Source of the DNA: Candidatus Thorarchaeota archaeon
GTDB lineage: Archaea > Asgardarchaeota > Thorarchaeia > Thorarchaeales > Thorarchaeaceae
Reading direction: 5' to 3'
Length of the DNA stretch: 64,000 bases
NCBI GenBank assembly: GCA_029855935.1
Contig: JAGSHN010000030.1
Span: 39,528-103,527, forward strand
A program made the position numbers and the translations under genes. The notes below the pieces were generated by a model. That model worked only from the letters and a program-made list of their open reading frames with translations. It was not told the DNA's origin and did not search any database. Shown here one piece after another: positions 27,476-64,000 of this stretch. Positions within the stretch are counted from its first letter, which is position 1. Each line of letters starts with the position of its first letter.

Positions 27476-27513
27476 CGGTACATCATCAATTCACAGTCGA
27501 CTATCTCCCTCTT

Positions 27514-41688: not shown

Positions 41689-42125
41689 TGCCCCCTGAGA
41701 GGTCCTAGCTTGCGCACCTGCTCCGTCAGAAGCGTGACCCCGTCAGCAAAGATCTGTGCCTCCGAGGCACTTGCCCACTGTAGCCGAATTCGTCGGGGAT
41801 CAATGCCCGCCTGCTCGACTGCCCTCTTGATGAGGGCCCAGCGCGCACGCATCTTCAGGTTGCCACTTGTGTAGTGGCAGTCGCCCGGATGACAACCGGA
41901 CACGAGTACACCATCTGCACCCATATCCAGTGCAGCAAGTATGAACTCCGGGTCAATCCGTCCTGTGCAGTTGACTCTGATTATCCTCGCATTTGGCGGA
42001 TACTGTATCCTGCTCGTCCCAGCAAGGTCCGCTCCCGCGTAGGAGCACCAGTTGCAGCAGAACGCCACGATCTTGGGCTCCCAGTCCTCGCTGGTGGTCT
42101 TCGTCTCCTGTGCCGCTTCGGTCAT
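41679..42125 (-). CDS. mvhD: MvhD [2Fe-2S] subunit
   Basis: EPKIVAFCCNWCSYAGADLAG, RV.CTGR, GADGV...GCHPGDCHY, W.SASE. Confidence 0.95.
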   Translation of the reverse strand: MTEAAQETKTTSEDWEPKIVAFCCNWCSYAGADLAGTSRIQYPPNARIIRVNCTGRIDPEFILAALDMGADGVLVSGCHPGDCHYTSGNLKMRARWALIKRAVEQAGIDPRRIRLQWASASEAQIFADGVTLLTEQVRKLGPLRGQWR

Positions 42126-46062: not shown

Positions 46063-46559
46063 TTCTCTCCCTCCGCTATCGGCAAGAGGTCCTTGATGCG
46101 TTTCAGGAACTTGTCGTTCCAACCAAGGTCGGGGTCAAGCCCCATATCCTCACGTTCCTCCTCCTCGAAGTCTGTGTACGAGTCCGCAAGCAGCCACCCG
46201 TTGTTGAGAAGTGAGTCCATCACCCGCCTGAACTCGGGAGGCACGTATCCCTCTCGTGCTGCGAGAATCCGAACGGCGTGGAACACCTCGGCAGGACTGA
46301 CACCCTCCTGACAGCGCTCCTCACAGAGCCGACACGTCATACACAGCCAGGGAAGTCTACTCTTCAGCACTTCCTCCCTCTCGCCAAGGAGGATCTTCTG
46401 AATCAGCTGGCGAGGCCGGTACTCATCGGTGTATCTCGCAACGGCGCAGCTTGCAGTGCAGATGCCGCACTGGATACACTTGTTGACGACCTCCCCGCCG
46501 GGAATAGCCGCCAGCTCCTCAGCAAAGCTTGAGGTTGGAACGTGAACCTTCTCAGTCAT
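46059..46559 (-). CDS. hdrC: Heterodisulfide reductase subunit C
   Basis: CIQCGICTASC and W.CMTCRLC..RC. Confidence 0.92.
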   Translation of the reverse strand: MTEKVHVPTSSFAEELAAIPGGEVVNKCIQCGICTASCAVARYTDEYRPRQLIQKILLGEREEVLKSRLPWLCMTCRLCEERCQEGVSPAEVFHAVRILAAREGYVPPEFRRVMDSLLNNGWLLADSYTDFEEEEREDMGLDPDLGWNDKFLKRIKDLLPIAEGEK

Positions 46560-46821
46560 TGACCGTCATCTCCAACTATCGTATGTGGGGCCGTGGAGTC
46601 CGAGGGGACCACGGTTTCGGAATGAAACTCAAGTTCCTCGCGAATCCAACGTTTCAGTGCTATTATCCTTAACGAGTCGAATAGCGGACACCAGAGGGGT
46701 AGAACATGAGACCGAAACAGAAGCGAACCGTACCTAAAGTGCTCGTTCTCCATCATCGCGTGGGGAACAGCGCTCCGCACGATCTCGATCGTCTCTCACC
46801 ACCTCCCCTGAGCGTACCGCG

Positions 46822-49608
46822 TCACGCAGATGTCGTCTTCTGGTGACGGACCACTTCGACCGGCTGCCCGGACTCGCTGGCTATCTGACTGAGAACCAGC
46901 GTCGCGTGCATCGCAGCAGCACTGCCAGCAGTCACACTGTCCGGAATGTCCTTTGGCCCGCTCGCACAGCCGCAGACGAAGATGCCCGGCACTCCTGTGT
47001 CTACAGGAGCCGCAATCTCATCCTTCACGGCAACGAAACCGTCCTGACCTAGCTCGATGCCAAGCTCCTCAGCCAGACGTGCTGTGTCCGGAGAGGGTAC
47101 AACTCCCGGGCTGAGGACCACCAGGTCGTGACTCACCATCATCGGCTGATCGCGCTCGGTCTGCTCTACGAACAGGCTCAGGTCGTGAGAGTCGGGAGCC
47201 TCCCAGACCTCTCCAACGCGTCCGCGGACGAAGTTGATGCCAAAGCGCGTCTTCGCCATCTGGTAGAACTCCTCGAAGCCCTTCCCGAACGCACGGATGT
47301 CCGCATAGTAGACCGTCACCTGCGCCTCCGGGTTGTGCTCACGCGCCATCACCGCATTCTTGATGCCGTACATACAGCAGATCCGTCCACAGTCAGGAAC
47401 TCCCTTCTGAGTGTCACGTGCACCGACACACTGGATGAATGCGATGTTCCTTGGCTCCTTCCCGTCGCTCGGCCGGATGAGATGACCACGTGTCGGGCCA
47501 GACGCGTTGATCAGTCGCTCGAACTCCAGAGCATTGATCACGTTTGGATACTTGCCGTAGCCAAGCCGACCGTACTCCGACACGTCGAAGATCTTGTACC
47601 CCGTGGCCACCACGATGGCGCCCACGTCCAGCTCAATCTCCTCGTCCTTCATATCGTGATTGATTGCCTGCCGGTCGCACGCGTCGACACAGAGCTTGCA
47701 CTCACAACACACGGTGCACCCGAGACATCGGCCAGCCTCCTCGATTGCCTCCTCCTCTGAGAAGCCGAGCTCGACCTCCTCAAAGGACCTCTTGCGTTCC
47801 GCAATTCGTGCCTTGGGCATCACGTGCCGCTTCTGTGGTTCGAAGGTGGCCTCATCCACGTCGGGCTCTGCGGGCCTGTAGAGCTGGCCATTCCGACCCT
47901 CGGCAAGGTCCTCGCCGCGGAGGTATCGGTCAATGGAAATCGCTGCCTCCTTGCCGTGGCCCACCGCCTTGACTGCGGTTGAGGGTCCGAGAACGACATC
48001 TCCGCCAGCAAAGACGCCGGACACGCTCGTCTGCAGTGTCAACGGATCGACGACCACCGTTCCCCACTCTGTTCGCGCGACGTGCTCGAGCAGCTTCAGA
48101 CTGGGAACCTTCTGACCGATGGCAACGATGAGCGTGTCAAGCGCGACCGTGAACTCAGAATCAGGTATCGGCACCGGACGACGCCGGCCCGACAGGTCCT
48201 TCTTGCCCAGCTTCATCCGGATGCACTGTAGCCCCTTGAGCTCGCCCTTCTGCGTGATGAGCTTTGTGGGCGCAGTCATCATCATGAAGCGGACACCCTC
48301 CTGTCGGGCGTCCTCCACCTCGCTTGGAATCGCAGGAAGCTCTACCTGCGACCGACGGTAGATGAGGGTCACCTCCTCGGCACCGAGGCGCAGCGCCACA
48401 CGAGCTGAGTCGATCGCTGCGTCGCCGCCACCAATCACACCGACCCTCTTGCCAATCTTGACCTTCTCGCCGCGTGCCACGGCATCCAGAAAGTCTATTG
48501 CGTGATACACCCCCTTCGCATCCTCGCCGGGGATGCCCAGCTTCCTGCTCTCGGAGGCACCTGTCGAGATGAATATGGCCTTGAAGCCCTGCTCCTTCAG
48601 CCAGTCCAGCGACTCGACCTCCGTGTTGAAGACGAACTCCACACCCATCTTCTCGACGCGCTCGATCTCCTCCCGTAGGATGTCGCGTGGGAGCCTGTAC
48701 TCCGGGATTGCATAACGCATCAGACCGCCCGGCTCGGAGCGCTTCTCGAAGACCGTCACAGGATAGCCCATCCGCGCGAGATGGTACGCGCAGGCAATGC
48801 CCGCAGGGCCCGCTCCGACAATCGCGACCTTGTCCTTCTTTGTGATCTCCGCAGTGACCTCCTCGGTCTCGCCCTTCTCGCGCTCCCAGTCGGCGAGGAA
48901 CCTGTGCAGGTTGCGGATGCTCACGCTCTCATCGTAGTTGCCACGCCTGCAGTCGCCCTCACACCAGTGGACGCAGACACGACCGAGGGTGCCCGGGAAC
49001 GGCATCGCGTCGCGGACGATGTCGAGCGCGCGCTTGAAGTCGCCGACCTGGATCAGCCGAATGAAGGCCTGCGTGTTCACGCCTGTGGGACAGGCCAGTC
49101 TGCAGGCCGCATGGCCCCTCTTGTCAATTGTGTAGACGTGCGGAGTTGCCTGCGGGAAGGGCATGTAGGTGGCCTTCCTGAAGCCGAGTCCCTCATCAAA
49201 CTCGCTTGGCACCTCCACCGGACAGACCTTCTCGCACTCGCCACACCCGGAACATGCATCCTCGTCAATGTACCGGGCCCTTCTAACGATCTCCACGTGA
49301 AACTTGCCCACCTTGCCAGCGACACGCTTCACCTCGGAGTATGTCAGAAGGTCGATGTTGGGGTGGTGCGCCACCTCGCTGAGTCGCGGCGTCAGAATGC
49401 ACGCCGAACAGTCCAGCGTGGGAAATGTCTTGTCCAGCATAGCCATATGGCCGCCTATGGACGGGCTCTTCTCCACAAGATAAACATGATAACCCTGATT
49501 AGCAATGTCAAGGGCAGCCTGCATTCCAGCGACACCGCCCCCTATGACAAGCGCACTGGGAGTCTCAGGCTGTTCGAGTCCTCCTGTACTAGCCTCCTTA
49601 ACCGTCAT
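46822..49608 (-). CDS. HdrL-type protein: HdrA core with inserted GltD/SudA-like NAD(P)H module
   Basis: HdrA motifs flank C..ACP, GRVC...CE..C.R, GAGPAG, GG..RY.IP.YRLP, GGGD.A.D, YRRS, FAGGD. Confidence 0.9.
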   Translation of the reverse strand: MTVKEASTGGLEQPETPSALVIGGGVAGMQAALDIANQGYHVYLVEKSPSIGGHMAMLDKTFPTLDCSACILTPRLSEVAHHPNIDLLTYSEVKRVAGKVGKFHVEIVRRARYIDEDACSGCGECEKVCPVEVPSEFDEGLGFRKATYMPFPQATPHVYTIDKRGHAACRLACPTGVNTQAFIRLIQVGDFKRALDIVRDAMPFPGTLGRVCVHWCEGDCRRGNYDESVSIRNLHRFLADWEREKGETEEVTAEITKKDKVAIVGAGPAGIACAYHLARMGYPVTVFEKRSEPGGLMRYAIPEYRLPRDILREEIERVEKMGVEFVFNTEVESLDWLKEQGFKAIFISTGASESRKLGIPGEDAKGVYHAIDFLDAVARGEKVKIGKRVGVIGGGDAAIDSARVALRLGAEEVTLIYRRSQVELPAIPSEVEDARQEGVRFMMMTAPTKLITQKGELKGLQCIRMKLGKKDLSGRRRPVPIPDSEFTVALDTLIVAIGQKVPSLKLLEHVARTEWGTVVVDPLTLQTSVSGVFAGGDVVLGPSTAVKAVGHGKEAAISIDRYLRGEDLAEGRNGQLYRPAEPDVDEATFEPQKRHVMPKARIAERKRSFEEVELGFSEEEAIEEAGRCLGCTVCCECKLCVDACDRQAINHDMKDEEIELDVGAIVVATGYKIFDVSEYGRLGYGKYPNVINALEFERLINASGPTRGHLIRPSDGKEPRNIAFIQCVGARDTQKGVPDCGRICCMYGIKNAVMAREHNPEAQVTVYYADIRAFGKGFEEFYQMAKTRFGINFVRGRVGEVWEAPDSHDLSLFVEQTERDQPMMVSHDLVVLSPGVVPSPDTARLAEELGIELGQDGFVAVKDEIAAPVDTGVPGIFVCGCASGPKDIPDSVTAGSAAAMHATLVLSQIASESGQPVEVVRHQKTTSA

Positions 49609-50243: not shown

Positions 50244-52427
50244 TTGGCGATAAAGGAGCTGAAGTACGAGGTCCCGAGGCTAGAGCGTGGCTATGCCAAC
50301 CAGACGCTCTACATCAATCTCTCGGACAACACCATCGAGATAAGACCCGTGGACGAGAAGATGAAGGAGACGTTCACGGGAGGCAAGGGTTTTGACCTGT
50401 GGCTCATGTGGAACGGACTGCCAAAGGACCGAATCGTCAAGTGGGACGATCCGGAGAACGAGATATGCATCGCCTGCGGGCCGCTTGGCGGCGTGCCCGG
50501 GTTCCCGGGTGGCGGCAAGTCAATAGTGACAACAATCTCACCGGAGACAGGCATCCCGATTGACAGCAATGTCGGTGGCTACTTTGGCCCACACCTGAAG
50601 TACGCAGGATTCGATGCGCTCGAGATACAGGGCAAGGCGGACAGGGACGTCTACATATTCATTGACGGGGACGAGGGCATCGTCCAGATACTCGATGCGT
50701 CCGACCTGCCTCCGTACGCCCACGAGATAACGAAGATACTGACCGAGCGACACACCGCCAACAAGGGTATGGACATCTCAGTCGTGGCGACCGGTCCGGG
50801 CGCAGAACACGCCTATATGGGCTGTCTGAACTTCTCGTGGTACGATGCGCGGCGTGGTGAGACACGCTACAAGCAGGCCGGACGCGGTGGCACGGGCCGA
50901 GTGTTCCGTGACAAGAGAATCAAGGCGATTGTGGCCAAACTCCAGAAGATGACCCTGGAGATGAACAATCCTGCTGATCCGGAGGAGCTGAGGGCCGTCG
51001 CAAGAGAGCACTCAAGAGAGATAGTGCAGCTAGACCCCAAGCAGAACAGGATGCGTGTCGTTGGCACGGGCCACCTGCCATCCATCATGAACGAGTACGA
51101 TCTGTTGCCTACGCGCAACTTCCGGACAGGCAGCGACCCGGAGGCAAAGAACCTGTTCGATGTTGTGTGGGAGAAGATCTTCACGAACACTGGGAAGGGC
51201 TGGGACGGCTGCTGGAGGGGCTGTGCTGTCAGCTGCTCTCACTGCATCGAGGGCTTTGTGCCGAAGACCGGCCCATTCAAGGGCAAGAAGGTTCTCGTTG
51301 ACGGTCCGGAGTACGAGACGATTGCAGGCTGCGGCTCGAACATTGGCGTGTTCGACCCGTACTACGTGGCAGAGCTAAACTTCTACTGCGACACCTACGG
51401 CATCGACACAATCTCATTCGGCACGACGATGGCCTTCGTGATGGAGCTCTTCTCCGAGGGCTACATCGATGAGAAGGCGACTGGCGGTCACAAGCTCGAG
51501 TGGGGCGCAGCCGAGGAGGCACTTGCAGTGCTCCACGAGATCGCCCGTGGCGAGGGCTTCGGTCTGCACTTTGGCAAGGGCATCGCCTACCTGAAGAAGT
51601 ACTTCGCCGAGAACTTCGGTGTCGACGAGAAGGTGATGCAGGACATCGGCATGGAGCACAAGGGCCTTGAGTACAGCGAGTACGTGACGAAGGAGAGTCT
51701 CGCCCAGCAGGGTGGCTACGGTCTGACGCTGAAGGGACCACAGCACGACGAGGCGTGGCTCATCTTCCTTGATATGGTCCACAACTACATGCCGACGTTC
51801 GAACAGAAGGCCGAGGCACTCCACTGGTTCCCGATGTGGAGAACGTGGTTCAGTCTGCAGGGCCTGTGCAAGCTGCCGTGGAACGACATCGTCCCCGAGG
51901 ACAACTCCCAGACCGACGAGCCCGCGAAGGTGCCCAAGCACCTCGAGTACTATGCGAGAGCCGTCTCCGCAATGACGGGCAAGAAGGTAACCCCTGATGA
52001 CCTCATCCTGCAGTCGGAGAGGGTCTACAACTTCCAGAGGATCTTCAACATCCGACAGGGCAAGGGCCTGAGAGAGCACGACTCCAACCCGCCGTACCGC
52101 AGTATGGGCCCCGTCACCGACTGGGAGTACGAGAGCCGACAGGAACGCTACGACCAGCAGCTGCAGGAGCTCGGCATCGACATCTCAGGGATGTCGACGA
52201 CTGAGAAGCGTGAGAGGCTGCGCAAGTACAGGGAGGAGCGCTACAGGCTTCTCACTGATGCTGTCTACAAGCGCAGAGGCTGGACGCGGAATGGCGTGCC
52301 GACCCTCGAGAAGATAAAGGAGCTCGGTATCGACTTCCCGTCCGTTGTGGAGGTCGTCAAGAAGTATGTGGACACCGAGCCGGATCCCTCGCTGCTCCCT
52401 GAGAGCGACGAGGCCTGGGTCGGATAG
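50244..52427 (+). CDS. aor: Tungsten-type aldehyde:ferredoxin oxidoreductase family protein
   Basis: SP.TG...DSN.GG, AGRGG.G, C..C...C, GPEYET, CD.YG.DTIS.G, ER.YN..R.FN, Y..RGW..NG.PT...L..LG. Confidence 0.92.
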   Translation: MAIKELKYEVPRLERGYANQTLYINLSDNTIEIRPVDEKMKETFTGGKGFDLWLMWNGLPKDRIVKWDDPENEICIACGPLGGVPGFPGGGKSIVTTISPETGIPIDSNVGGYFGPHLKYAGFDALEIQGKADRDVYIFIDGDEGIVQILDASDLPPYAHEITKILTERHTANKGMDISVVATGPGAEHAYMGCLNFSWYDARRGETRYKQAGRGGTGRVFRDKRIKAIVAKLQKMTLEMNNPADPEELRAVAREHSREIVQLDPKQNRMRVVGTGHLPSIMNEYDLLPTRNFRTGSDPEAKNLFDVVWEKIFTNTGKGWDGCWRGCAVSCSHCIEGFVPKTGPFKGKKVLVDGPEYETIAGCGSNIGVFDPYYVAELNFYCDTYGIDTISFGTTMAFVMELFSEGYIDEKATGGHKLEWGAAEEALAVLHEIARGEGFGLHFGKGIAYLKKYFAENFGVDEKVMQDIGMEHKGLEYSEYVTKESLAQQGGYGLTLKGPQHDEAWLIFLDMVHNYMPTFEQKAEALHWFPMWRTWFSLQGLCKLPWNDIVPEDNSQTDEPAKVPKHLEYYARAVSAMTGKKVTPDDLILQSERVYNFQRIFNIRQGKGLREHDSNPPYRSMGPVTDWEYESRQERYDQQLQELGIDISGMSTTEKRERLRKYREERYRLLTDAVYKRRGWTRNGVPTLEKIKELGIDFPSVVEVVKKYVDTEPDPSLLPESDEAWVG

Positions 52428-52725
52428 GACGCATTCTGAGGAGGGGTGATTCAACCCTTCCTCTGATCTGATTTTTCACCAGCCGGGGGGTCGATTGATC
52501 ACTAGGCGCAGTCACTTCAAGCGTGCTTCTCGAATTCTGACCCAGAGAGCGCAAATCTAGGATAGAAGGTTTCGGCGACTATGTCACCTAGCCCGCGTCG
52601 TGTGATATTCTAGATACCGCTGTGAGGCTTTCAGAGTGTCAGGGCAAGAAAAAGACAAAAGACGGGACCACATGACTCCCGGCAGTCTTTGATTGGCCGG
52701 ACTACAGACCCGAGCGTGGACGCTA

Positions 52726-55278
52726 GTGAAACTTGAGGATTTGACCAGTTTTCTGGGAGGGCTCGCGAGTAGACTGGACAATACAGAAGAGGCTGCTCTT
52801 GCAGTCCTCGGAATTGCCGCCATCTCCCTTCCAAGCACTCTGTCCGTCGTGGGTGTTGCACAGACGGCAATCGAGATGGACTCAACCATCAAAGACACGA
52901 GGAGAGCGCTGTTGTGGTGGTGGGAACGACGCAAGATCTCGAAACAGATTCCCGCCCGTGTTCACAGGTGGGACGGGATGTCCAAAGACAAGAGAAAGGC
53001 TCTGCTGGAGGCCGTCAAGGCCGTCTTCGCTCTAGACGATGAATTTGCCCGGGTGATGCTCAAAACAACAGACGTGGACAAGGCCCTCTTCGCGTGGTTC
53101 CGGTCTGCAGGCGCGAGCGAGGACATGGCCAAGGCCCTGCGGGACCTCGTGCAGAACGAGATGCACCAGCTCCTCCTAAACAACCCAGAACTGTTGGACC
53201 ATCTACAGTTTCAGGGAATAATGGCGCTCAGGCAGGCTATAATCTCACTGGGCGGTGATACGACTCGTGCTTTGCGTATGCTGGAACAGATCAAAGAGCT
53301 GCTCATAGTCCAGCTAGTTGACCAAATCAACCACAAAGAGAGCCTGCGCTTCATAGCCGGTCTGAAGACGTTTCGAGAGATTGTCAGGGATATCCCTGGC
53401 AAGGAGCCGGAGCCATTCCGTCATGGCCCGCCTATCGTGGCTGATTTTGCCGCGGGCTTTGTTGTAGCCCCCAAGAAGATGCTTGGGAAGGTTGCCAAAG
53501 GCCTCGGCCTCGGGGTTCCCACGCTCGACATCAAGGGCCCTGTCATTCCTGACGAGAGATTTGCGGCCGTCACACTCTTCGGTCATCCAGGATCAGGCAA
53601 GACCTATCTTGCTCTCACGCTGGCCTACGAGCTGGAGCAGTTCGGCTGGGACATATTCTCTCTCGACGTGGCCACATTTGAACGTCTTGTGGACAGATAC
53701 GTGTTCATCCGTAGAATTGTCGACGCTGTACGGGAAAGATACCTTGGTGCGGGAACTGACATCACGGACGACCCGCCGCGAGTACTTCTCATTGTCGAGA
53801 ACATTCATATGGCACCGGAATTCGCCAGTGACTTTCTGTCGACACTCAAACATGTTTGTGAGGATAGCCAATCTGGCGGACTCATTCGATTGCTCCTTGT
53901 TGGACGACCGCTTTGGGAAACCCGGAAACACGGTTCTCTCACAGGTCCCATTGACACAATAGTTGAGCGGTCAGTGCGCATCGATATGGAACCGTTCTCC
54001 GAGACTACGGTCGCCAACATGCTCGCGATAGTGAAGCGGAGGCGAAACGATGTCCAGGTCAGCACAGACACGTTGATAGAGTATGCCGGGGGCGACAACT
54101 TCCTCATTGTGACTGCACTCAAGATAATGTACGAACACGGTAGTCGTGATGTGTTGAGGGACACCACTGCATTGGCTCGCCACGTGTGGCACTTTTGCCT
54201 CGAACATATAGACGTGAGTCTCCGAAACCGGGCCGCGTCAGTCCTTTGTTTTGTCGCGGCATTCAGCAGCATCGGAACTCCGGTTCTAGCCCGCTTTGTG
54301 GCGGAAAGTCTGAGAGAGAGAGTCGCGCAGGTCGCTGACATCATCAGACAACTCGCAGACACTGGTTTCTTGAGGACATATCAGTTCGAAAAGGATTCTT
54401 CACAGGTCTTTGTCGAATTCTACCACTCTCGCTACGCGCAGATCATTCTGGGAACGTGCAAGGACACAAATCCTAGGACACTGCACATGCAATACCTTGA
54501 CTACAATCCGCCGGACTTTGTTCGTTTTGCTACAGCCCTCGCGCTATGGGGCGCACACTCAGGGGACAACCAACTTCTGTCTGAGCTGTTCAATCAAGTA
54601 ATTGAACGCGAGGACTGTGTTGCAGCACTCCGGATCATCGGTGTGAACTTGATGGACACGAATCTCCGACTGGCAACGAGGGCCTTCCGTAGAATCACCG
54701 AACTGAGTCCCGATGATGCTGGGGCGTGGAACAACCTCGGCAATCTGCTCGCCAAGCAGAGGGAACGATGGGACGAGGCTGAGGAGGCATATCGCAGGGC
54801 CATCGAACTGAGTCCCGATGATGCTGGGGCGTGGAACAACATCGGGATCCTGCTCGCCAAACAGGAACGATGGGACGAGGCTGAAGCGGCCTATCGCAAG
54901 GCCATCGAACTGAGGCCCGGCGATGCCGAAGTGTGGTACAACCTCGGTGTTCTGCTCGCCAGACGGAAACGATGGGACGAAGCTGAGGTAGCATTCCGCA
55001 CAGCCACCGAACTGAGGAAGGATTCCGCTATGGGGTGGTACGGCCTAGGTCTTGTCCGTCTTGAACAAGGGCAGACAGAGCGTACGGCCCAGGCCCTTTC
55101 CCATGCCATTCGACTTCGACCCGACCTTGCAAAGGAGTGTCTCAGGCTTGCGGCCTACTGGAGAGAAAGGGGATCAGACGAGAACGCAGAGGCAGTTCTT
55201 CAAGCAGTCCTTGACTCAATCTCAGACGAGCAAGTCAGGAAGCACGCTGACGAAACGCTCAAACAGAAAGACGGATGA
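52726..55278 (+). CDS. STAND-like P-loop NTPase with TPR repeats, copy 1 (about 4 TPR)
   Basis: Walker A GHPGSGKT, Walker B-like LLIVENIH, LLLVGR sensor, AWNNLG TPRs; GTG 52726 chosen by alignment with the paralogs. Confidence 0.85.
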   Translation: MKLEDLTSFLGGLASRLDNTEEAALAVLGIAAISLPSTLSVVGVAQTAIEMDSTIKDTRRALLWWWERRKISKQIPARVHRWDGMSKDKRKALLEAVKAVFALDDEFARVMLKTTDVDKALFAWFRSAGASEDMAKALRDLVQNEMHQLLLNNPELLDHLQFQGIMALRQAIISLGGDTTRALRMLEQIKELLIVQLVDQINHKESLRFIAGLKTFREIVRDIPGKEPEPFRHGPPIVADFAAGFVVAPKKMLGKVAKGLGLGVPTLDIKGPVIPDERFAAVTLFGHPGSGKTYLALTLAYELEQFGWDIFSLDVATFERLVDRYVFIRRIVDAVRERYLGAGTDITDDPPRVLLIVENIHMAPEFASDFLSTLKHVCEDSQSGGLIRLLLVGRPLWETRKHGSLTGPIDTIVERSVRIDMEPFSETTVANMLAIVKRRRNDVQVSTDTLIEYAGGDNFLIVTALKIMYEHGSRDVLRDTTALARHVWHFCLEHIDVSLRNRAASVLCFVAAFSSIGTPVLARFVAESLRERVAQVADIIRQLADTGFLRTYQFEKDSSQVFVEFYHSRYAQIILGTCKDTNPRTLHMQYLDYNPPDFVRFATALALWGAHSGDNQLLSELFNQVIEREDCVAALRIIGVNLMDTNLRLATRAFRRITELSPDDAGAWNNLGNLLAKQRERWDEAEEAYRRAIELSPDDAGAWNNIGILLAKQERWDEAEAAYRKAIELRPGDAEVWYNLGVLLARRKRWDEAEVAFRTATELRKDSAMGWYGLGLVRLEQGQTERTAQALSHAIRLRPDLAKECLRLAAYWRERGSDENAEAVLQAVLDSISDEQVRKHADETLKQKDG

Positions 55279-55386
55279 GATCCTCCAGTTGCCGAGTATC
55301 CGCAACAAGAAACAGACAAAAGCCAGAACCGCGTGACTCCCAGCAGTCTTTCGTTGGCCGGACTACAGACCTGAGCGTGGGCGCTA

Positions 55387-57624
55387 GTGAAACTCGAGGA
55401 CTTGACCAGTTTTCTGGGAGGGATCGTGAGTAAACTGGAAGGTGCAGGAGAGGCTGCTCTAGCGGCCCTCGGGATTGCGGCCGCGGCACTTCCGAGCACC
55501 TTCTCCTTGGTGGGCGTCGCACAGACAGCAATCGAGATGCACTCGACCATCAAGAACACGAGGAGAGCGCTGTCTTGGTGGTGGAAACGACGCAGAATCG
55601 TGAAACGGATTCCCCTCTATATTGACAACTGGGAGGAAATGAATGGCAGGGACAAGAAGGCTTTGAGAAAAGGCCTGAGAGCAGTCTTTGCTCTAGACGA
55701 AGAATTTGCGAGGACAGTACTCGACACAAAAGACGTGGACCAGGCTCTCTTCAAGTGGTTCCAGTCTGTAGGCGCGAACGAGGATATGGCCAAGGCTCTG
55801 CGGGACATAGTGCAGGACGAGATGCATCACCTTCTTCTGAACAATCCAGAACTGTTGGACCATCTACAGTATCAGGGAATACTGGCACTGAATCAGGCCG
55901 TGGCCTCGCTGGGCGGTGATGTGACTCTGGTTCTCAGTATGCTTGAGAGGATTCGAGGGCTACTCGTGGCCCAGCTCATCGACCAGATCATGCATAGGGA
56001 AAACCTGCGTCAAATAGTCGGCCTGAACACGTTCAGAGAGATAGTCAAGAATGATCCCAACAAAGAGGCAGAGCCGTTCCGTGACGGACCACCTACTATG
56101 GCTGACTTTGCCGCCGGCTTTGTGGTGGCCCCCAAGAAGATGCTCAAGAAGGTTGCCAAGGCCCTTGGCCTCGGAGTCCCCACGCTGAGAATCAAGGGAC
56201 CCGTCATTCCTGACGAGAGTTTTGCTGCCGCGTCACTGTTTGGCCATTCGGGTTCAGGCAAGACCTGTCTTGCTCTCACGCTGGCCTACGAGCTGGAGCA
56301 GTTCGGCTGGGACATATTCTGTCTGGATCTGGCGACATTCGAGCGTCCTGCGGACCAATACGTATTCGTTCAGAGGGTTGCAGATGTTGTGAGAGAGAGA
56401 TACCTTGACGTGAGGACAGACTCGATCGGCGACCCGCCGCGAGTACTTCTCATCATCGAGAACATTCATCTGGCACCGGAACTTGCCAGAGATTTTCTGT
56501 TTGCGCTCAAGCGTGTGTCTGAGAATAGCCAATCCGGAGGACTCGTTCGACTGCTACTCGTTGGGCGGCCACCTCTGGAAACCAAGATGCGCGGTTCTCT
56601 CATAGAGCCGCTCGATGCGGTGATTGAACAGTCGAATCGAATCGATATGGAACCGTTCTCGAAGGTCACTGTGGCCAATATGCTTGCAATAGTAAAACGC
56701 AGGCAACCAAGTATTCGGCTTGGCACCAAGAAGTTGATGGGATTCTCGTGTGGCGACAACTTCCTCATTGTGTCTGCACTCAAGGCAATTGACAAGGACG
56801 GGAGCCTTGATGTACTGAGAGATAACACCGCGCTAGCAAGCAAGGTATGGAATTTCTACCTCCAACATCTTGATCCGCTTGTTCGAGAAAACGCCTCGGC
56901 AGTCCTTTGTATCGTCGCCGCGTTCAGCAGCACCGAGGCTCCTGTGCTCACAAGCTTTGTGAACTATATCCTGCAGGATAGAGTTCCCAAAGTCGATAGT
57001 ATTCTTACCAAGTTCACAACAGAGGGCCTCTTGAGGATGTTTGAATCTCAAGATGACTGTTCACGAGTTTTCATTCAGTTCCACCACTCTCGCCGTGCGC
57101 AGATGATCCTAGACCTGTGCGAGGACACAAATGCCTGGACTCTGTTTGTGCAATACTTTGCCTACAATCCACAGGACTCCGTCCAATTCGCAATGGCCCT
57201 AGCACAGTGGGGAGCGCATCGCGGAGATGAAGACCTTCTCATCAATCTATTCAATCTAATAAAAGACCGTAGGGACTGTGTTTCGGTACTTTGGACCATT
57301 GGTGTGAAACTGTCAGAAACAAAGCCCGGGGTGGCAACGGAGGCCTTTGATAGGATCACCAAACTGAGAGAGGACTATGCCGAGGCATGGAACAACCTTG
57401 GCGTTCTCCTCGCAAAGCAGGAACGATGGGACAGGGCCGAAAGAGCACTCCGCAAGGCCACAGAACTGAGAGAGGACTTTGCCGAAGCGTGGAACAACCT
57501 CGGCATTGTCCTCACTGAGCGGAAGAAATGGAGGGAGGCCGAGTCAGCATTCCGCAAGGCCATCAGACTGAGGCCCGATTATGCCGGGAAGCGGTTCGAC
57601 TTGGATTTTGTTCTTCTTGAGTAG
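55387..57624 (+). CDS. STAND-like NTPase-TPR copy 2 (2 intact TPR, C-terminally truncated)
   Basis: GHSGSGKT, LLIIENIH; premature TAG at 57622 followed by decayed homology to the paralog C-termini. Confidence 0.82.
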   Translation: MKLEDLTSFLGGIVSKLEGAGEAALAALGIAAAALPSTFSLVGVAQTAIEMHSTIKNTRRALSWWWKRRRIVKRIPLYIDNWEEMNGRDKKALRKGLRAVFALDEEFARTVLDTKDVDQALFKWFQSVGANEDMAKALRDIVQDEMHHLLLNNPELLDHLQYQGILALNQAVASLGGDVTLVLSMLERIRGLLVAQLIDQIMHRENLRQIVGLNTFREIVKNDPNKEAEPFRDGPPTMADFAAGFVVAPKKMLKKVAKALGLGVPTLRIKGPVIPDESFAAASLFGHSGSGKTCLALTLAYELEQFGWDIFCLDLATFERPADQYVFVQRVADVVRERYLDVRTDSIGDPPRVLLIIENIHLAPELARDFLFALKRVSENSQSGGLVRLLLVGRPPLETKMRGSLIEPLDAVIEQSNRIDMEPFSKVTVANMLAIVKRRQPSIRLGTKKLMGFSCGDNFLIVSALKAIDKDGSLDVLRDNTALASKVWNFYLQHLDPLVRENASAVLCIVAAFSSTEAPVLTSFVNYILQDRVPKVDSILTKFTTEGLLRMFESQDDCSRVFIQFHHSRRAQMILDLCEDTNAWTLFVQYFAYNPQDSVQFAMALAQWGAHRGDEDLLINLFNLIKDRRDCVSVLWTIGVKLSETKPGVATEAFDRITKLREDYAEAWNNLGVLLAKQERWDRAERALRKATELREDFAEAWNNLGIVLTERKKWREAESAFRKAIRLRPDYAGKRFDLDFVLLE

Positions 57625-57961
57625 GAGTAAACAGAGGCTGTAGCTAGGAAGGTCTCCTCTGCCCCTCGGCCTCAGCCGGGGCTTCCGAAGCTGTGCATAG
57701 AGCTTGTGGCTTGCCGGAGAGAGAGGGTTTGGAGAGAGCGGTTCGGACGAGAGGGTGGAAACCATTATTCGTGCAGGCCTAGATTCGACCTCAGACGAGC
57801 GGTTCGGGTCACGTGCTGAAGAAATACTCAGGAGAATCAGGAAAGACGAACTAGATACTCGTATTGCCGGGTACCCCCCGACGAGAAACAGACAAAAGGC
57901 GGAATTGAATGAACTCCTCAAATCCGTGGTTGCCGAACCACAGACGTGAGCGTGGGGACTG

Positions 57962-60900
57962 GTGAGATTTGAGGACCTGACCAGTCTCTTGAAGAGACTG
58001 GCAAGCAAGTTGGGCAGTACGGCAGAGGTTGCTCTTGGGATTCTTGGAGTCGCGGCGGCGGCACTTCCCAGTGCCCTCTCATCACTGGATCTCGTACAGA
58101 CGGTAGTCGACATGCACTCGGTGGTCAGGGACACCAGAAAGGCGTTGTCATGGTGGTGGAAACAACGCAATATCCTGAAACAGATTCCTGCCTATATTGA
58201 CAACTGGGAGAAAATGGAGGAGGGCCGTAGGAAGGCTCTCCAGAAGGCCCTGAGGGCCATCTTTGCTCTAGACGATGAGTTTGCACGGGTGATACTTGAG
58301 ACCACAGACATAGACGACGCCATTGTCAGGTGGCTCCAGTCTGCAGGCGCGGACGAGATTGTTGCTGGGGCTCTCCGGGACCTCGTGCAGGCCGAAATGC
58401 ATCAGCTTCTCCTGAACAATCCTGAGCTGCTGGACCACTTGCAATATCAGGGCATTATGGCGCTAAGACAGGCTATGCTGATGCTTGGTGATGAGATGGT
58501 CCAAGCCCTCAATACGCTCGAACAAATCAGACGACTTCTTGAGGCTGAGCTCACTGACAAGATCAGCCAGAGGGAGAGCCTGCGACACGTAGTTGGTCTG
58601 AAGACGTTCAGAGAGATTGTCAGGGATGTACCGGGTAAGATGGCGGAGCCATTTCGTGATGGGCCACCCACGATGGCTGATTTCGCCGCAGGTTTTGTTG
58701 TGCCACCAAGAGAGATGCTAGGAGAGGTTGCCAGAGCTCTTGGTATCGGTGTTCCCACGCTCGGAATTGAAGGACCGGTTGTCCCAGACAGCAGGTTTGC
58801 TGCTGTCACACTGTTCGGTCACTCAGGGTCGGGGAAGACGTATCTTGCTCTCACGCTGGCCTATGAGATGGAGCAGTTTGGATGGGACATATTCTGTCTT
58901 GACCTCGCCACGTTCGAACGCCCGACGGACGGATACGTGATTCTCCAAAGGATTGCGGATGTTGTGAGAGAGAGATACTTGGTCTCAGGGACTGCCGCAA
59001 CGGACGACCCTCCGCGAGTACTTCTCATTGTTGAGAACATTCATCTGGCACCTGAACTTGCCAGTGACTCTCTGTCCACGTTCAAGCGCATATGCGGGGA
59101 GAACCAGTCGGGAGGACTTGTTCGACTGCTGCTCATAGGTCGGCCGCCCCTGGAAGCTCACGTGCGCGGTTCTCTCATAGACCCACTTGATATCGTAGTT
59201 GAGCAGTCTGTGCGAATCGATATGGAACCGTTCTCGGAGGTCACTGTGGCCAATATGATCTCAATAGTGGAACGCAGGCAGAGTGTTCGGCTCAGCACAC
59301 GAAGGTTGATCCATTACTCCGGAGGCGACAACTTCCTCATCGTGTCCGCGCTCAAGGCAATCGACAAGGACGGGAGCCTCGACGTCCTCAATGACGGCAC
59401 CGTACTGGCTCGCCATGTGTGGAACTTCTACCTCGAACATGTTGAACCAATCAATCGGACGGCCGCCAAGTCAGTCCTCTGTGTCATTGCAGCGTTCTCT
59501 AGCATCGAGGCTCCCGTGCTCGCAGGATTTGTCAGAGATACCTTGAAGGAGAAGATTACACAGGTCGCTGTCATCCTCAACGACCTCACGGACAAGGGCC
59601 TGCTTAGGATGTACCAGTCCCAAGAAGACAGCTCACAGATCTTCATCGGGTTCTATCACTCTCGCCGCGCGCAGATCATTCTCGCGACCTGCAAGAACAC
59701 AGAGGCAAGGAGCCTTCGTTCGCAATACCTCGAGTCCAATCCACCCGATTTTGTTCCATTCACGACCTCTCTGGCACTGTGGGGCGCACATACGAGGGAC
59801 GAGGAACTTCTAGTCAATCTTCTCAGCCGGATAGAAGAACGCGATGATTGTTTCATACCACTCTGGACGATTGGCGTCAGATTGTCTGAGACGAAACCAG
59901 GACTCGCAGCAATTGCCTTCAGAAGAGTCACCAGTTTGAAAAACGACATCCCTCAGGCTTGGTATAACCTTGGTGTTCTTTTGGCAAGACAAGAACAATG
60001 GGAAGAGGCCGAGGTAGCCTACCGCACGGCCATCAGACTCAGGGACGACCTTGTTGACGCGTGGAACAACCTTGGTGCCCTCCTTGCGAAGCAGAGAGAG
60101 CGATGGGACGAGGCTGAGATGGCATTCCACAGAGCCCTCGAATTGAGAGATGATGATGCTCAGCTGTGGAATAACCTCGGAGTTCTCCTCGCCAAGCAGA
60201 GAGAACGATGGGAGGAGGCTGAACAGGCATATCGCAGGGCCATCGAACTGAGTCCAGACGACGCAAGGGTGTGGAACAACCTCGGCGCTCTTCTCGTCAA
60301 GCAGAAACGATTGGATGAGGCAGAGAGATCACTCCGCAGAGCCATTGACCTTGAATCCGAATATGCAGACGCGTGGTACAACCTTGGTGTGCTCCTCGCA
60401 GAGCATGCTGAAAGATGGAATGAGGCGGAGATGGCGTTTCGCAGAGCCATCGAACTCAGGGAGGAGTTTGCACACGCGTGGTACGACCTCGGTGTCCTCC
60501 TCGCGGAGCATACTGACCGATGGGACGAGGCAGAGGATGCATTCCGCAGAGCTATCGAACTGAGAGAGGACTTTGCAGAGGCATGGTACAACCTTGGTGT
60601 CCTCCTTATGGATAAGGAGGACCGATGGGACGAGGCCGAGATGGCGTATCGCAAGGCCATTGGACTGAAAGACGACTATGCCAAGGCGTGGAACAGCCTC
60701 GGGAATCTCCTCGCCAAGCAGAAACAACGCTGGAGTGAGGCCGAGATGGCATATCGCACGGCCATCAGACTGAAACCTGACGACGCTGAGGTGTGGAACA
60801 ACCTTGGCATTCTCCTTGCGAAGCAGGACCGGTCGGACGAGGCCGAGGCGGCATATCACAGAGCCATCGAACTGAAACCAGACTATGCCAAAGCGTGGTA

Positions 60901-61423
60901 CAACCTCGGCCTCCTTCTCGAAGAGCAGAGAGAGCGATGGGACGAGGCTGAGAAGGCATATCGCAAGGCCATCAATCTGAAACTTGACAATCCTCTGGTA
61001 TGGATCAACCTCGGTGTTCTCCTTGCGGAACGAGAACAATGGGATGAGGCCGAAAGGGCATTTCGCAGAGCCATCGAACTTGGACCTGGGTATGCCGAGG
61101 CGTGGTATAACCTTGGCAACATCCTTGTCAGGCAGAAGCGATGGAGCGAGGCCGAAACGGCATTTCGCGAGGCTATCGCATTGAGGGGTGACTATGTCGA
61201 TGCGTGGAACAACCTTGGTCTTGTCCTTCTGGAACAAGGGGAGACACAACCTGCGGCCAAAGCGCTCTTCGCTGCCATTAGACTTCGACCCAGCCTTGCA
61301 GAGAGATACGTTCTGCTTTCGGCATACTGGAGACAGAGAGGCTCGGAGGAGAACGCAGAGGCCGTTCTTCGTGTTGTCTTCGGCTCGACCTCGGACGAGC
61401 AAATTGGGAATCGTGAGGAATAG
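57962..61423 (+). CDS. STAND-like NTPase-TPR copy 3 (13 TPR)
   Basis: GHSGSGKT, LLIVENIH; 13 tandem 34/35-aa TPR units. Confidence 0.87.
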   Translation: MRFEDLTSLLKRLASKLGSTAEVALGILGVAAAALPSALSSLDLVQTVVDMHSVVRDTRKALSWWWKQRNILKQIPAYIDNWEKMEEGRRKALQKALRAIFALDDEFARVILETTDIDDAIVRWLQSAGADEIVAGALRDLVQAEMHQLLLNNPELLDHLQYQGIMALRQAMLMLGDEMVQALNTLEQIRRLLEAELTDKISQRESLRHVVGLKTFREIVRDVPGKMAEPFRDGPPTMADFAAGFVVPPREMLGEVARALGIGVPTLGIEGPVVPDSRFAAVTLFGHSGSGKTYLALTLAYEMEQFGWDIFCLDLATFERPTDGYVILQRIADVVRERYLVSGTAATDDPPRVLLIVENIHLAPELASDSLSTFKRICGENQSGGLVRLLLIGRPPLEAHVRGSLIDPLDIVVEQSVRIDMEPFSEVTVANMISIVERRQSVRLSTRRLIHYSGGDNFLIVSALKAIDKDGSLDVLNDGTVLARHVWNFYLEHVEPINRTAAKSVLCVIAAFSSIEAPVLAGFVRDTLKEKITQVAVILNDLTDKGLLRMYQSQEDSSQIFIGFYHSRRAQIILATCKNTEARSLRSQYLESNPPDFVPFTTSLALWGAHTRDEELLVNLLSRIEERDDCFIPLWTIGVRLSETKPGLAAIAFRRVTSLKNDIPQAWYNLGVLLARQEQWEEAEVAYRTAIRLRDDLVDAWNNLGALLAKQRERWDEAEMAFHRALELRDDDAQLWNNLGVLLAKQRERWEEAEQAYRRAIELSPDDARVWNNLGALLVKQKRLDEAERSLRRAIDLESEYADAWYNLGVLLAEHAERWNEAEMAFRRAIELREEFAHAWYDLGVLLAEHTDRWDEAEDAFRRAIELREDFAEAWYNLGVLLMDKEDRWDEAEMAYRKAIGLKDDYAKAWNSLGNLLAKQKQRWSEAEMAYRTAIRLKPDDAEVWNNLGILLAKQDRSDEAEAAYHRAIELKPDYAKAWYNLGLLLEEQRERWDEAEKAYRKAINLKLDNPLVWINLGVLLAEREQWDEAERAFRRAIELGPGYAEAWYNLGNILVRQKRWSEAETAFREAIALRGDYVDAWNNLGLVLLEQGETQPAAKALFAAIRLRPSLAERYVLLSAYWRQRGSEENAEAVLRVVFGSTSDEQIGNREE

Positions 61424-61561
61424 GCGCCTCAGCCGGTCAGGAAACACAAATGAGATACTGGTCTTGCCGGGCGTCCGCAACGAGAAACAGACAAAAGCCA
61501 GAACCTCGGCACTACGAACGATCAAGCATTCGCCGTATTGCAGACTTGAGTGTGGGCACCA

Positions 61562-64000
61562 ATGAGTCTTGAGGATCTGACCGCAATTCTAGAGCGACTG
61601 GCGACCAACCTTAGGAATACAGGAAGGGCTGCTCTCGTGTTCCTTGGAGTTGCGGCGGTAGTAGCATCTCCATTTCTTGCCCCCATCGGTGCCCTGCAGA
61701 CCGCGATTGAAGGCTATTCCACTATCCGCGACGCTAAGAAGGCCTTGGCGTGGTGGTGGAAACGACGCAAGATCTTGCGACGGCTTCCCGACCGCATTGA
61801 CAACTGGAAGGAGATTTCGAAAGACCAGAAGAAGGCCTTGCAGAAGGCCCTCAAGGCTGTCTTCGCTCTCGACGATGAGTTTGCGCGAGTGATACTCGAG
61901 ACGACAGATGTTGAAGAGGCACTCCTCACGTGGTTCTCGTCAGCAGGCGCGGACAAGAATGTCGCCGAGGCTCTCCGGGACCTCGTGCGGGACGAGATGA
62001 ATCACCTTCTCCTCAACAACCCGGAGCTGCTGGACCATCTACAGTATCAGGAGACAATGGCACTGAAACAGGCCATATCCTCACTGGGCGGTGACCTGGC
62101 TCAGGTACGGGATACGCTCGAACAGGTCAGAAAGATATTCTTGGCCCAGCTCATCGATCAGATTAGGCACAGGGAAAACCTGCGTCAAATAGTCGGTCTG
62201 AAGACGTTCAGAGAGATAGTCAAAGACGACCCCAATAAGGAGCCGGAGCCGTTTCATGACGGGCCACCCACTATGGCAGACTTCGCTGCCAACTTCGTCG
62301 TGCCTCCCAAGAAGATTCTGCGGAAGGTTGCAGGGGCACTTGGCCTTGGGGTCCCGACATTGGGCATCAGGGGCCCTGTAATACCTGACGAGAGATTTGG
62401 GGCTGTCACACTGTTCGGCGAGTCCGGCTCAGGCAAGACCTATCTTGCTCTCACGCTGGCCTACGAGATGGAGCAGTTCGGCTGGCACATATTCTGCCTT
62501 GACCTTGCCACGTTCGAACGGCCGACGGACGGATACACAATCCTTCAGAGGACTGCAGATGTCGTGAAAAAGAGATACCTTGATGCGAGGACCAACTCGA
62601 TGGACGGCCCGCCACGAGTACTGCTCATCATCGAGAACATTCATCTGGCGCCAGAACTTGCCGGCGACTTTCTGTCCACACTCAGGCGCGTGTCCGATGA
62701 CAGCAGCTCTGGAGGACTCGTCCGACTACTGCTCGTTGGACGACCACCTCGGGAAACTCGAAAGCGTGGTGGTCTCACAGATCCCCTTGGCACGGTTATT
62801 GAGCAGTCCGCGCGCGTGGACATGAAGCCGTTCTCAAAGGTCACCGTCGCCAACCTGCTTGCGATAGTGAAGCGCAGACGAAGGGGTATCCGACTCAGCA
62901 CAAGAACATTGATGAAGTACTCCCATCGCGACAACTTTCTCATTGTGTCCGCACTCAGGGCAATTGACAAGAACGGCAGTCTTGACGTACTGACGGATGC
63001 CAGGGTACTGGGGAACAATATGCGAAACTTCTACATCGATCACATAGACGAGCGGTATCGAGACCAGGCCGTGACCGTCCTCTGTGTCGTTGCGGCGTTC
63101 TCCAGTGTCGAGGCTCCCGTGCTACTGGGCTTTGTCAGAGATACCCTAGAGGATACCAACAAGCACGTGGCTGATATCCTGAAGGAACTCACAGACAAGG
63201 GCCTTCTGAGGATGTTCCAGTCTGTGAAGGACAGCTCACGAGTATTCATCGAGTTCTACCACTCCCGCCGCGCGCAGTTGATTCTGAGTACTTGCGAGAG
63301 GACAGATGTCAAGACACTACATATGAAATACCTTGACTACAATCCGCCAGACTTTGCTCGTTTCGCCACAGCCCTCGCGCTATGGGGCGCACACACGGGA
63401 GACAAGCAACTTCTGTCTGAGCTGTTCAATCAAACAATTGAACGGGAGGACTGTGTTGCAGCACTCTGGATCATCGGTGTGAACTTGATGGACACGAATC
63501 TCGAACTGGCAACGAGGACCTTCCGTAGAATCACCGAATTGAGGCCTGAAGATGCGAAAGCGTGGAACAACCTCGGCAATCTGCTCGATGAGCAGAGGGA
63601 ACGATGGAAGGAGGCTGAGGAGGCATGTCGTAGGGCCGTCGAACTGAGACCCGATCTTGCTGGGGCGTGGTACAACCTCGGCCTTCTTCTTGTGAAGCAG
63701 AGGGAACGATGGGACGAGGCCGAGAGGGCATATCGCAGGGCCATCGAACTGAGTCCAGACGACGCTGAGGTGTGGAACAACCTCGGTGTCCTGCTCAAGC
63801 AGATGAAGCGATGGGACGAGGCTGAAGAGGCATATCGCAAGGCCATCGAACTGAGTCCAGACGACGCTGAGGTGTGGAACAACCTCGGCCTTCTGCTCAA
63901 GCAGATGAAGCGATGGGACGAGGCGGAGAAGGCATTCCGCAGGGCCATCAAACTGAGTCCAGACGACGCTGAGGTGTGGAACAACCTCGGTGTCCTGCTC
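61562..64000 (+). CDS. STAND-like NTPase-TPR copy 4 (partial, runs off the window)
   Basis: ATG 61562 MSLEDLT...; GESGSGKT, LLIIENIH; open to 64000 with at least 4 TPRs; absent from the ORF track because there is no stop. Confidence 0.85.
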   Translation, partial: MSLEDLTAILERLATNLRNTGRAALVFLGVAAVVASPFLAPIGALQTAIEGYSTIRDAKKALAWWWKRRKILRRLPDRIDNWKEISKDQKKALQKALKAVFALDDEFARVILETTDVEEALLTWFSSAGADKNVAEALRDLVRDEMNHLLLNNPELLDHLQYQETMALKQAISSLGGDLAQVRDTLEQVRKIFLAQLIDQIRHRENLRQIVGLKTFREIVKDDPNKEPEPFHDGPPTMADFAANFVVPPKKILRKVAGALGLGVPTLGIRGPVIPDERFGAVTLFGESGSGKTYLALTLAYEMEQFGWHIFCLDLATFERPTDGYTILQRTADVVKKRYLDARTNSMDGPPRVLLIIENIHLAPELAGDFLSTLRRVSDDSSSGGLVRLLLVGRPPRETRKRGGLTDPLGTVIEQSARVDMKPFSKVTVANLLAIVKRRRRGIRLSTRTLMKYSHRDNFLIVSALRAIDKNGSLDVLTDARVLGNNMRNFYIDHIDERYRDQAVTVLCVVAAFSSVEAPVLLGFVRDTLEDTNKHVADILKELTDKGLLRMFQSVKDSSRVFIEFYHSRRAQLILSTCERTDVKTLHMKYLDYNPPDFARFATALALWGAHTGDKQLLSELFNQTIEREDCVAALWIIGVNLMDTNLELATRTFRRITELRPEDAKAWNNLGNLLDEQRERWKEAEEACRRAVELRPDLAGAWYNLGLLLVKQRERWDEAERAYRRAIELSPDDAEVWNNLGVLLKQMKRWDEAEEAYRKAIELSPDDAEVWNNLGLLLKQMKRWDEAEKAFRRAIKLSPDDAEVWNNLGVLL
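63747..64000 (+). repeat. Near-identical 102-bp tandem TPR-coding repeats
   Basis: AACTGAGTCCAGACGACGCTGAGGTGTGGAACAACCTCGG recurs exactly at 63747, 63849 and 63951. Confidence 0.9.

Follow-up and report, generated by a model that had tools for sequence, protein, structure and literature searches.

A tandem array of STAND-TPR genes encoding a candidate membrane-tethered receptor family in a Thorarchaeon

We analysed a 64,000-nucleotide stretch (hereafter the window) of the Candidatus Thorarchaeota archaeon assembly GCA_029855935.1 (contig JAGSHN010000030.1, positions 39,528 to 103,527 of the forward strand), the last part of which is occupied by a tandem array of related genes. The list of open reading frames (ORFs) and their translations gives four head-to-tail frames on the + strand, running from 52.7 kb to the window end, and all four share one layout: an N-terminal module (N-module), then a P-loop NTPase with helical and winged-helix domains, then TPRs. 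We read these proteins, with a probability of about 0.45, as a membrane-tethered STAND receptor family that would work on the principle of Avs and NLR proteins and direct its output at the membrane. The reading is founded on the architecture, on a locus that is accessory and expanding, and on analogy with STAND proteins of the Avs and NLR types; a role in conflict or defence appears the most likely one.

Four paralogs with a probable STAND NTPase and a TPR arm

The four proteins are 61–65% identical in pairwise comparison over their 640 non-repeat residues, with hundreds of invariant columns, so that the four head-to-tail paralogs of a single tripartite layout that an earlier note on this DNA had described are indeed present. 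Paralog 1 (52726..55278; all features of the array lie on the + strand) starts with GTG and encodes 850 residues, comprising the N-module, the STAND NTPase, four TPRs and a C-terminal tail. Paralog 2 (55387..57624, 745 residues) has the layout of paralog 1 with only two intact TPRs, and ends prematurely inside a degenerate TPR, while paralog 3 (57962..61423, 1153 residues) carries 13 TPRs and the C-terminal tail. Paralog 4 (61562..64000 from an ATG, or from a GTG at 61550) has at least five TPRs and runs off the window, the end of which is the exact end of contig C24; it has therefore been cut by the assembly. Six further TPRs, followed by the C-terminal tail of the family, are read in frame from the start of contig C6 of the same genome (G000:C6:2-763); from their sequence they would be either the rest of the TPR tail of paralog 4 or the tail of a further copy. 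The assembly break itself falls inside the TPR repeats (window 64000 / G000:C6:1-763).

The central part of paralog 1 (53359..54717) consists of a linker (GLKTFREIV...EPFR.GPP..ADFA.GFVV.P), the nucleotide-binding domain, a helical domain and a winged helix. Its landmarks are Walker A (53581-53604), Walker B (53785-53808), LLLVGR (53890-53907) and a putatively MHD-like FYHSR (54418-54432). The corresponding Walker A motifs of paralogs 2, 3 and 4 are at 56242-56265, 58817-58840 and 62417-62440, and their F(Y/H)HSR motifs at 57079-57093, 59651-59665 and 63254-63268. The motifs quoted earlier, GxxGSGKT, LLI(I/V)ENIH, LLL(V/I)GR and F(Y/H)HSR, were recovered in all four copies, with Walker A reading GH(S/P)GSGKT or GESGSGKT and Walker B LLI(I/V)ENIH. 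Profile libraries match the P-loop weakly (Pfam AAA_22 at E 1e-8 to 6e-4, nSTAND3 below threshold), NCBIfam returns TPR-containing families only, and a profile search against PDB sequences picks up Clp/Hsp100 and other AAA+ proteins through the P-loop alone, a result that is uninformative on clade. Over approximately the first 240 residues Pfam has no match at all.

The fold is more telling. An AlphaFold2 model of residues 195-640 (mean predicted local distance difference test score, pLDDT, 80.6; predicted template modelling score 0.79) contains the arrangement of nucleotide-binding, helical and winged-helix domains, and a Foldseek search with it, one of the checks proposed for the array, matches STAND folds. 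Orc1/Cdc6, Apaf-1, MalT, SAMD9, CED-4, the STAND-TPR protein 6mfv and the plant NLR Sr35 are among the matches, with ORC2 and NRC1 as further entries in the comparison, and SAMD9 and 6mfv are the closest solved structures. Matches to SAMD9, NLRC4, Apaf-1, MalT, 6mfv and NRC1 span 280-370 residues of the model; classical AAA+ proteins align over only ~215. A family alignment displays a conserved linker ahead of the P-loop, Walker A, Walker B, an arginine after strand 4 in most members and a near-invariant histidine in the winged helix, the last kept in at least 90% across 10 family members. In the model F(Y/H)HSR comes after the strands predicted at E356-359 and E367-370, at the beginning of helix 374-382, and the predicted placement of its histidine directly after the wing hairpin is MHD-like.

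Relatives of the array are few and distant. A word-indexed search of 5.8 billion protein clusters with residues 1-640 returned the locus itself only, and a HMMER profile of the four paralogs run against 1.84 billion representative proteins found seven others (E 8e-20 to 4e-4), with identities of 22-27% among those compared. All seven match from profile position 173 or later, that is over the linker and NTPase module, and six carry TPRs or WD40 repeats. Each of the seven also matches the Pfam family nSTAND_NTPase5 (PF25199), two of them above its curated cut-off of 34 bits (P0009, 40.7 bits; P0015, 39.5 bits), and a NACHT signal is present only in P0011, at E 1e-3 over the P-loop. The nSTAND_NTPase5-TPR proteins of Thorarchaeota, such as P0009, P0015 and P0012 (GCA_014728035.1, contig WJMJ01000140.1), belong to the host's own archaeal family. 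They share with the array the linker (G-L/I-K-x-F ... P-x-F-R ... D-F-x-x-G-Y/F-V), a Walker A of the form GxSGxGKT, a Walker B of the form hhhh(D/E)N(I/V)H, the near-invariant winged-helix histidine, C-terminal TPRs and, in most, N-terminal hydrophobic helices. The two groups differ in that identity is low, that the window proteins do not themselves reach the Pfam threshold, that most of the relatives lack a helical insert of ~150 residues and that the relatives examined are single genes rather than a tandem array. Among 400 genomes of the phylum, full-length relatives are confined to the host's own family, where 11 of 85 genomes give a match at E<=1e-5 and about nine encode a relative at full length or over a substantial part; the 400 yielded no ortholog above 27% identity, and the viral contigs scanned yielded no relative. 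With seven remote relatives in 1.84 billion proteins and none for the N-domain, the proposal of an undescribed archaeal family is well founded, and by these searches the family appears essentially undescribed. As to nomenclature, the term 'nSTAND5' was not found in the passages of the literature that were searched, among which an eLife 2021 paper defines nSTAND1 and nSTAND2.

Because of the fold matches, the MHD-like histidine, the TPR arm and the relatives that carry nSTAND_NTPase5, we consider the NTPase very probably STAND-type. Its earlier placement in that class is thus sustained by predicted fold, by the histidine and by the remote relatives, and nothing in these comparisons moves it outside.

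The TPR arms are unambiguous in kind and uneven in length. Units of 34 or 35 residues make up, with the tail, the end of paralog 1 (54718..55275), and the arrays of paralogs 2, 3 and 4 are at 57379-57621, 59951-61420 and 63554-64000; Pfam TPR_1 and TPR_11 match at E 1e-17 to 1e-84. Counting by the W-x-x-L-G anchor at 34/35-residue spacing gives 4, 2, 13 and at least 5 units, very close to the earlier estimate of about 4, 2, 13 and at least 4. The most variable columns are 2, 9, 12, 13, the 15/16 loop (a one-residue indel), 23, 32 and 35, and several variable positions are on the face of helix A, the usual ligand-contact side of a TPR.

Predicted membrane anchor and orphan helical part of the N-module

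The N-module is built of a short N-terminal amphipathic helix, a hydrophobic helix, an invariant WWW with a basic cluster, and a helical part. In paralog 1 the hydrophobic helix is an uncharged run of 27 residues (52792..52872) and in paralogs 2, 3 and 4 its equivalents are at 55453-55533, 58028-58087 and 61628-61708; the run covers residues 23-49 (23-42 in copy 3), is thus 20-27 residues long, is rich in Ala, Gly and Ser, and reaches 19-residue Kyte-Doolittle maxima of 1.8-2.3. The flank on its N-terminal side is acidic or neutral, and the flank on its C-terminal side holds the WWW (52915-52923, 55576-55584, 58151-58159 and 61751-61759 in paralogs 1-4) and then the basic cluster. From these properties the uncharged helix with its WWW and basic cluster reads as a single membrane anchor of N-out/C-in topology. 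In five of the seven remote relatives the same position, immediately ahead of the shared linker, is occupied by one strongly hydrophobic helix or by two, so membrane tethering appears to be a trait of the family. A signal peptide or lipoprotein was considered for the hydrophobic stretch and rejected, as the region before it is long and acidic, there is no cysteine, and an exported NTPase would make no sense. Pfam, PADLOC and NCBIfam searches found no nuclease, TIR, SIR2 or protease domain in the array proteins. The statement that no effector can be recognised holds for these domains but calls for a qualification, since the N-terminus looks like a membrane anchor, a feature that the remote relatives have in kind as well.

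Behind the anchor lies an all-helical part (52924..53358 in paralog 1, approximately residues 67-211, and the same residues in the other copies) that amounts to an insert of ~150 residues between anchor and linker relative to most of the relatives. The nearest approach to it was P0012, which is without transmembrane helices and aligns to the helical region in hhalign at 94.6% probability, mostly from the linker. The helical part has no Pfam match at E<=10, no homolog among the 1.84 billion representative proteins, none when the N-domain profile was run against longer proteins, and no match in the viral contigs; structural and language-model searches with it gave chance-level matches only. It is nevertheless constrained, with ratios of nonsynonymous to synonymous substitution rates (dN/dS) of 0.21-0.39. 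The N-domain is absent elsewhere in the host's 97%-complete genome, and it is therefore no adaptor for an effector that carries the same domain on a gene of its own. A four-copy complex prediction for residues 1-215 scored 0.00 with the fold of the partner itself uncertain, and is evidence neither way.

Three scattered genes of the host genome make up another STAND family, whose proteins have ~1100 residues and HEAT-repeat sensors (P0016-P0018; L118-L120); the genes are at G000:C6:51852-55310, at G000:C24:33511-36888, shortly before the window begins, and at G000:C4:25339-28611. Against nSTAND_NTPase5 these proteins score 21-35 bits, with one over the cut-off in the six-frame search, and their N-terminus consists of a Gly/Ala-rich hydrophobic stretch (GILVTAASxVAGVALGP...) and then a helical region of ~200 residues. 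Homology between these N-domains and that of the array was ruled out by hhalign (probability 0.2%); the NTPase modules of the two families align at 47%, from Walker A to Walker B only.

An accessory locus in a conserved neighbourhood

Upstream of the array lies a gene for aldehyde:ferredoxin oxidoreductase (AOR; window 50244-52427), whose best named relatives come from Candidatus Thorarchaeota metagenome-assembled genomes and which is 86% identical to its counterpart in isolate B65_G9; a TBP gene is present on the contig that encodes the relative P0012. The host is a Thorarchaeon from a hydrothermal-vent metagenome, which settles in the affirmative the Asgard affiliation that the earlier note had left conditional. 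The downstream flank is a gene (G000:C6:883-2322) for a Big_7 plus endonuclease/exonuclease/phosphatase-family protein. In two genomes of the host genus, Thorarchaeota B65_G9 (G312) and the 98%-complete G313, the AOR gene has the homolog of this flank next to it, at a distance of 0.4-0.7 kb. The synteny in both genomes, together with the in-frame TPR start of contig C6, indicates that C24 continues into C6, and because the flanks are directly adjacent in both, the array is an accessory insertion of at least 12.4 kb. As two genomes of its own genus lack it at this site, the locus is not invariant, and no member of the family turned up in the vicinity in any of 80 related AOR loci. Neither an integrase nor flanking direct repeats were found at the insertion borders.

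Among sequencing runs only one, from a hydrothermal-vent metagenome and probably the source sample, contains the locus, and contigs of that run cover the array at an even depth of ~16-20x with no joint that skips it. Since the depth over the array equals that over the AOR gene, it is unlikely that near-identical extra copies have been collapsed. Searches turned up no expression data, and no RNA run is listed as containing the locus.

Every region of the proteins, the N-module included, has a dN/dS of 0.12-0.42, with non-repeat parts at about 0.2-0.3, and all copies are, to judge from these substitution ratios, under purifying selection. Synonymous divergence (dS) between paralogs is 0.8-1.2, against ~1.8-2.1 (near saturation) for flanking orthologs between genomes of the genus. 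This lower value fits amplification within the lineage, with the caveat that gene conversion also lowers dS between paralogs; one conversion tract is visible between paralogs 1 and 4 at residues 576-640 (82% identity, dS 0.28). The suggestion that the array evolves by birth and death is borne out by the variable TPR numbers, the decayed 3' end of one copy and the gene-conversion tract. Diversifying selection, which had been suggested for the array as well, finds no support, given that the non-repeat parts are under purifying selection and that the TPR units are consensus-like with variation at few surface positions.

Each copy is preceded by a conserved noncoding leader of ~110 nt, at 52612..52725 in paralog 1 and at 55279-55386, 57850-57961 and 61450-61561 in paralogs 2, 3 and 4. 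In the alignment of the four upstream regions the leader has a near-invariant 15-nt core (AGAAACAGACAAAAG) and also keeps a CAGAC.TGAG(C/T)GTGG box, despite a coding dS near 1. Every copy thus carries its own upstream region, and the conserved core and box may be a shared regulatory site; no obvious TATA box was seen in the leaders of the four paralogs. The leaders also settle the start of copy 1. A longer frame with a TTG start at 52693 was rejected because the matching leaders of copies 2-4 carry in-frame stops, so the true start is the GTG at 52726, as the earlier note had it, and the collection record of the paralog 1 protein has the 850 residues that this start predicts.

The spacer on the 3' side of copy 2 is 337 nt long, against 108-126 nt after the other copies. 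Three-frame translation against the tails of paralogs 1 and 3 identifies within it a decayed remnant of the last TPR and tail of paralog 2 (57625..57850), with two in-frame stops (LLE*E*TE, where paralog 1 has LEQGQTE) followed by a frameshift, and the tail motif GSDE...DS(T/I)SDE can still be read in another frame. As the spacer still encodes these parts behind the stops and the frameshift, copy 2 has been truncated at its C-terminus by recent decay.

Several further features of the neighbourhood were recorded. An HdrA/HdrL-type gene block at window 42122-49608, upstream of the AOR gene, is syntenic in relatives; the block and the AOR gene both belong to core energy metabolism rather than to defence. 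A DUF6615 gene (G000:C6:2445-3401) is located in a stretch of ~2.2 kb to which nothing corresponds in B65_G9 between its two syntenic genes, and this stretch may be a second, small insertion beside the array. At the site of the array, B65_G9 itself has an unconserved 0.7-kb spacer (L033:6998-7722) with a small ORF and, by eye, a PIN-like fragment (LVDTNVFL...), which may be the remnant of another accessory cassette. Further away, a low-GC stretch of the window (24174-27480) contains a CRISPR array of ~49 repeats (GTTTGAATCGGACTAGAAGTAGGGTTGAAAC) at a spacing of 67-71 nt; the ORFs adjacent to it are not cas genes but a histidine-kinase-like frame upstream and a radical SAM frame downstream.

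Possible functions and relation to known systems

How such receptors might work can be sketched by analogy with STAND proteins of the Avs and NLR types. The TPR arm would keep the switch off until a protein ligand is bound, nucleotide exchange would then lead to oligomerisation, and the oligomer would cluster the N-modules at the membrane, to perturb it (an output of the abortive-infection or cell-death type) or to signal there. Paralogs with different TPR arms might, by the same analogy, recognise different ligands. Like Avs/AVAST proteins, the array proteins combine an N-terminal output module, a STAND NTPase and a TPR-like sensor in one chain, in which ligand binding would be expected to cause oligomerisation, and Avs-type architectures include variants with transmembrane N-terminal modules (bioRxiv 10.64898/2026.01.04.697583). 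Unlike them, the array matches no Avs model in PADLOC, has no defence-island context and is not known to have a defence activity or trigger. A second likeness is to plant coiled-coil (CC) NLRs (ZAR1, Sr35), fungal HeLo/HELL NLRs and MLKL, in the helical N-module with a hydrophobic first helix, in the nucleotide-binding, helical and winged-helix domains with an MHD-type histidine, in the clustering of paralogs with variable repeats, and in the presence of Sr35 and NRC1 among the fold matches. The differences are that the N-modules have no detectable homology, that NB-ARC and NACHT are not matched, and that the sensor is of TPR and not LRR or WD40 type.

A number of observations weigh against the receptor reading, beginning with the NTPase. 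By fold alone the AAA+ proteins Orc/Cdc6, which have the same domain arrangement, score about as well as STAND proteins. The Walker B motif has a single acidic residue (E-N, where most remote relatives have D-N). nSTAND_NTPase5 is not matched in the complete Pfam list of P0002, nor by the four genes in a six-frame genome search at E<=0.01, so the link to this Pfam family is transitive only, the remote relatives P0009 and P0015 passing its cut-off and the window proteins not; NACHT (PF05729) and NB-ARC (PF00931) give no match in the window proteins at E<=0.1. The anchor and its topology rest on sequence properties only, the model of the N-module being poor (pLDDT 54), and the TPR units are near the canonical consensus (W4 L7 G8 A20 A27 P32), their variation being no proof of selection for diversity. 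As to context, the flanks are conserved, housekeeping-type neighbours (the AOR gene on one side, the gene for the Big_7 plus endonuclease/exonuclease/phosphatase-family protein on the other), no recognisable defence gene is adjacent to the array or in the checked neighbourhoods of its relatives, and the nearest CRISPR array is 25 kb off and unlinked to the locus. PADLOC, whose use the earlier note had proposed, matched no catalogued system and returned P-loop and TPR fragments only (mad8, the TPR part of PrimPol, IetA; E 1e-9 to 4e-2). With such weak, partial, single-protein matches and no defence genes next to the array or its relatives, the immune-receptor function then put forward did not gain support. 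STAND-TPR proteins also serve as regulators, MalT being an example.

One alternative is that of non-immune switches, in which membrane-tethered STAND-TPR ATPases would scaffold or regulate envelope, transport or stress signalling and the paralogs would be tuned to endogenous partners. MalT, a regulator of this class, is among the fold matches, purifying selection extends along the whole protein, and the lack of a defence context at the array and around its relatives would be natural for such a switch. The dispersed STAND-HEAT family of the same genome has a similarly organised N-terminus, a hint that STAND switches close to the membrane are in general use in the lineage. We nevertheless regard this explanation as somewhat unlikely: two same-genus genomes lack the array at the corresponding site, the lack of any ortholog above 27% identity in 400 genomes of the phylum is not what one expects of a housekeeping regulator, the searches found no output domain of DNA-binding or enzymatic type, and conflict genes typically show what is seen here, namely amplification in tandem, a copy in decay and repeats that vary in number.

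A bolder version of the receptor reading makes the N-module of ~210 residues a new membrane-permeabilising executioner, switched by oligomerisation of the STAND-TPR part, with the four or more paralogs as a receptor repertoire against proteins of viruses and mobile elements. We think this unlikely, but if true, the N-module would be an Asgard functional counterpart of the cell-death modules of plant CC-NLRs, fungal HeLo proteins and MLKL. The manner in which such a module might act, with the hydrophobic helix buried at rest and freed on oligomerisation to form a pore, is modelled on these analogues and seems, if anything, a little less probable still. It would suit the order of amphipathic helix, hydrophobic helix, helical bundle and STAND module, the moderate hydrophobicity of an Ala/Gly/Ser-rich helix whose small-xxx-small spacing favours helix packing, and a helical part that is both constrained and unique to the array proteins; yet the helices of the remote relatives at this position are strongly hydrophobic, as is typical of permanent transmembrane segments.

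That the array is decaying or selfish DNA, the remnant of an acquired element with no present host function, would fit its insertion relative to same-genus genomes, the nonsense mutations and frameshift in the tail of copy 2 and a GC content of 0.53-0.56, slightly below that of most of the window, but is very improbable because of purifying selection, which has kept four long frames of 745 to more than 1150 codons intact (dN/dS 0.2-0.3 at a dS near 1), and is also at odds with the conserved leader before each copy and with the failure to find an integrase, flanking repeats or viral relatives.

Returning to the membrane-tethered receptor family, much of its design is familiar. Single-chain STAND proteins with a TPR sensor and an N-terminal output module, sometimes transmembrane and often expanded in a lineage, are well known (PMC8195603; PMC7159879; bioRxiv 10.64898/2026.01.04.697583), and NACHT-type NLR proteins have already been reported in Asgard archaea (PMC11291487). 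The latter belong to the same superfamily and superphylum, whereas the array family has no NACHT signal and forms a separate, very narrow lineage. Because its NTPase belongs to neither the NACHT nor the NB-ARC type, the array has no direct bearing on the ancestry of eukaryotic NLRs, and the relevance to NLR origins that had been attached to it is weak. What is new here is the extreme isolation of the family, the orphan N-module, and a tandem array in a Thorarchaeon with clear features of birth and death. Output module, NTPase and repeat sensor in one chain are a logic common to bacterial Avs and to the NLRs of plants, fungi and animals, and in this array an Asgard archaeon has a private, amplified family of that build, with an output module that has no relatives and is predicted to act at the membrane. 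If the array is a defence system, it would add a new type of effector, and would be a rare archaeal NLR-like cluster that evolves by duplication, repeat expansion, conversion and decay.

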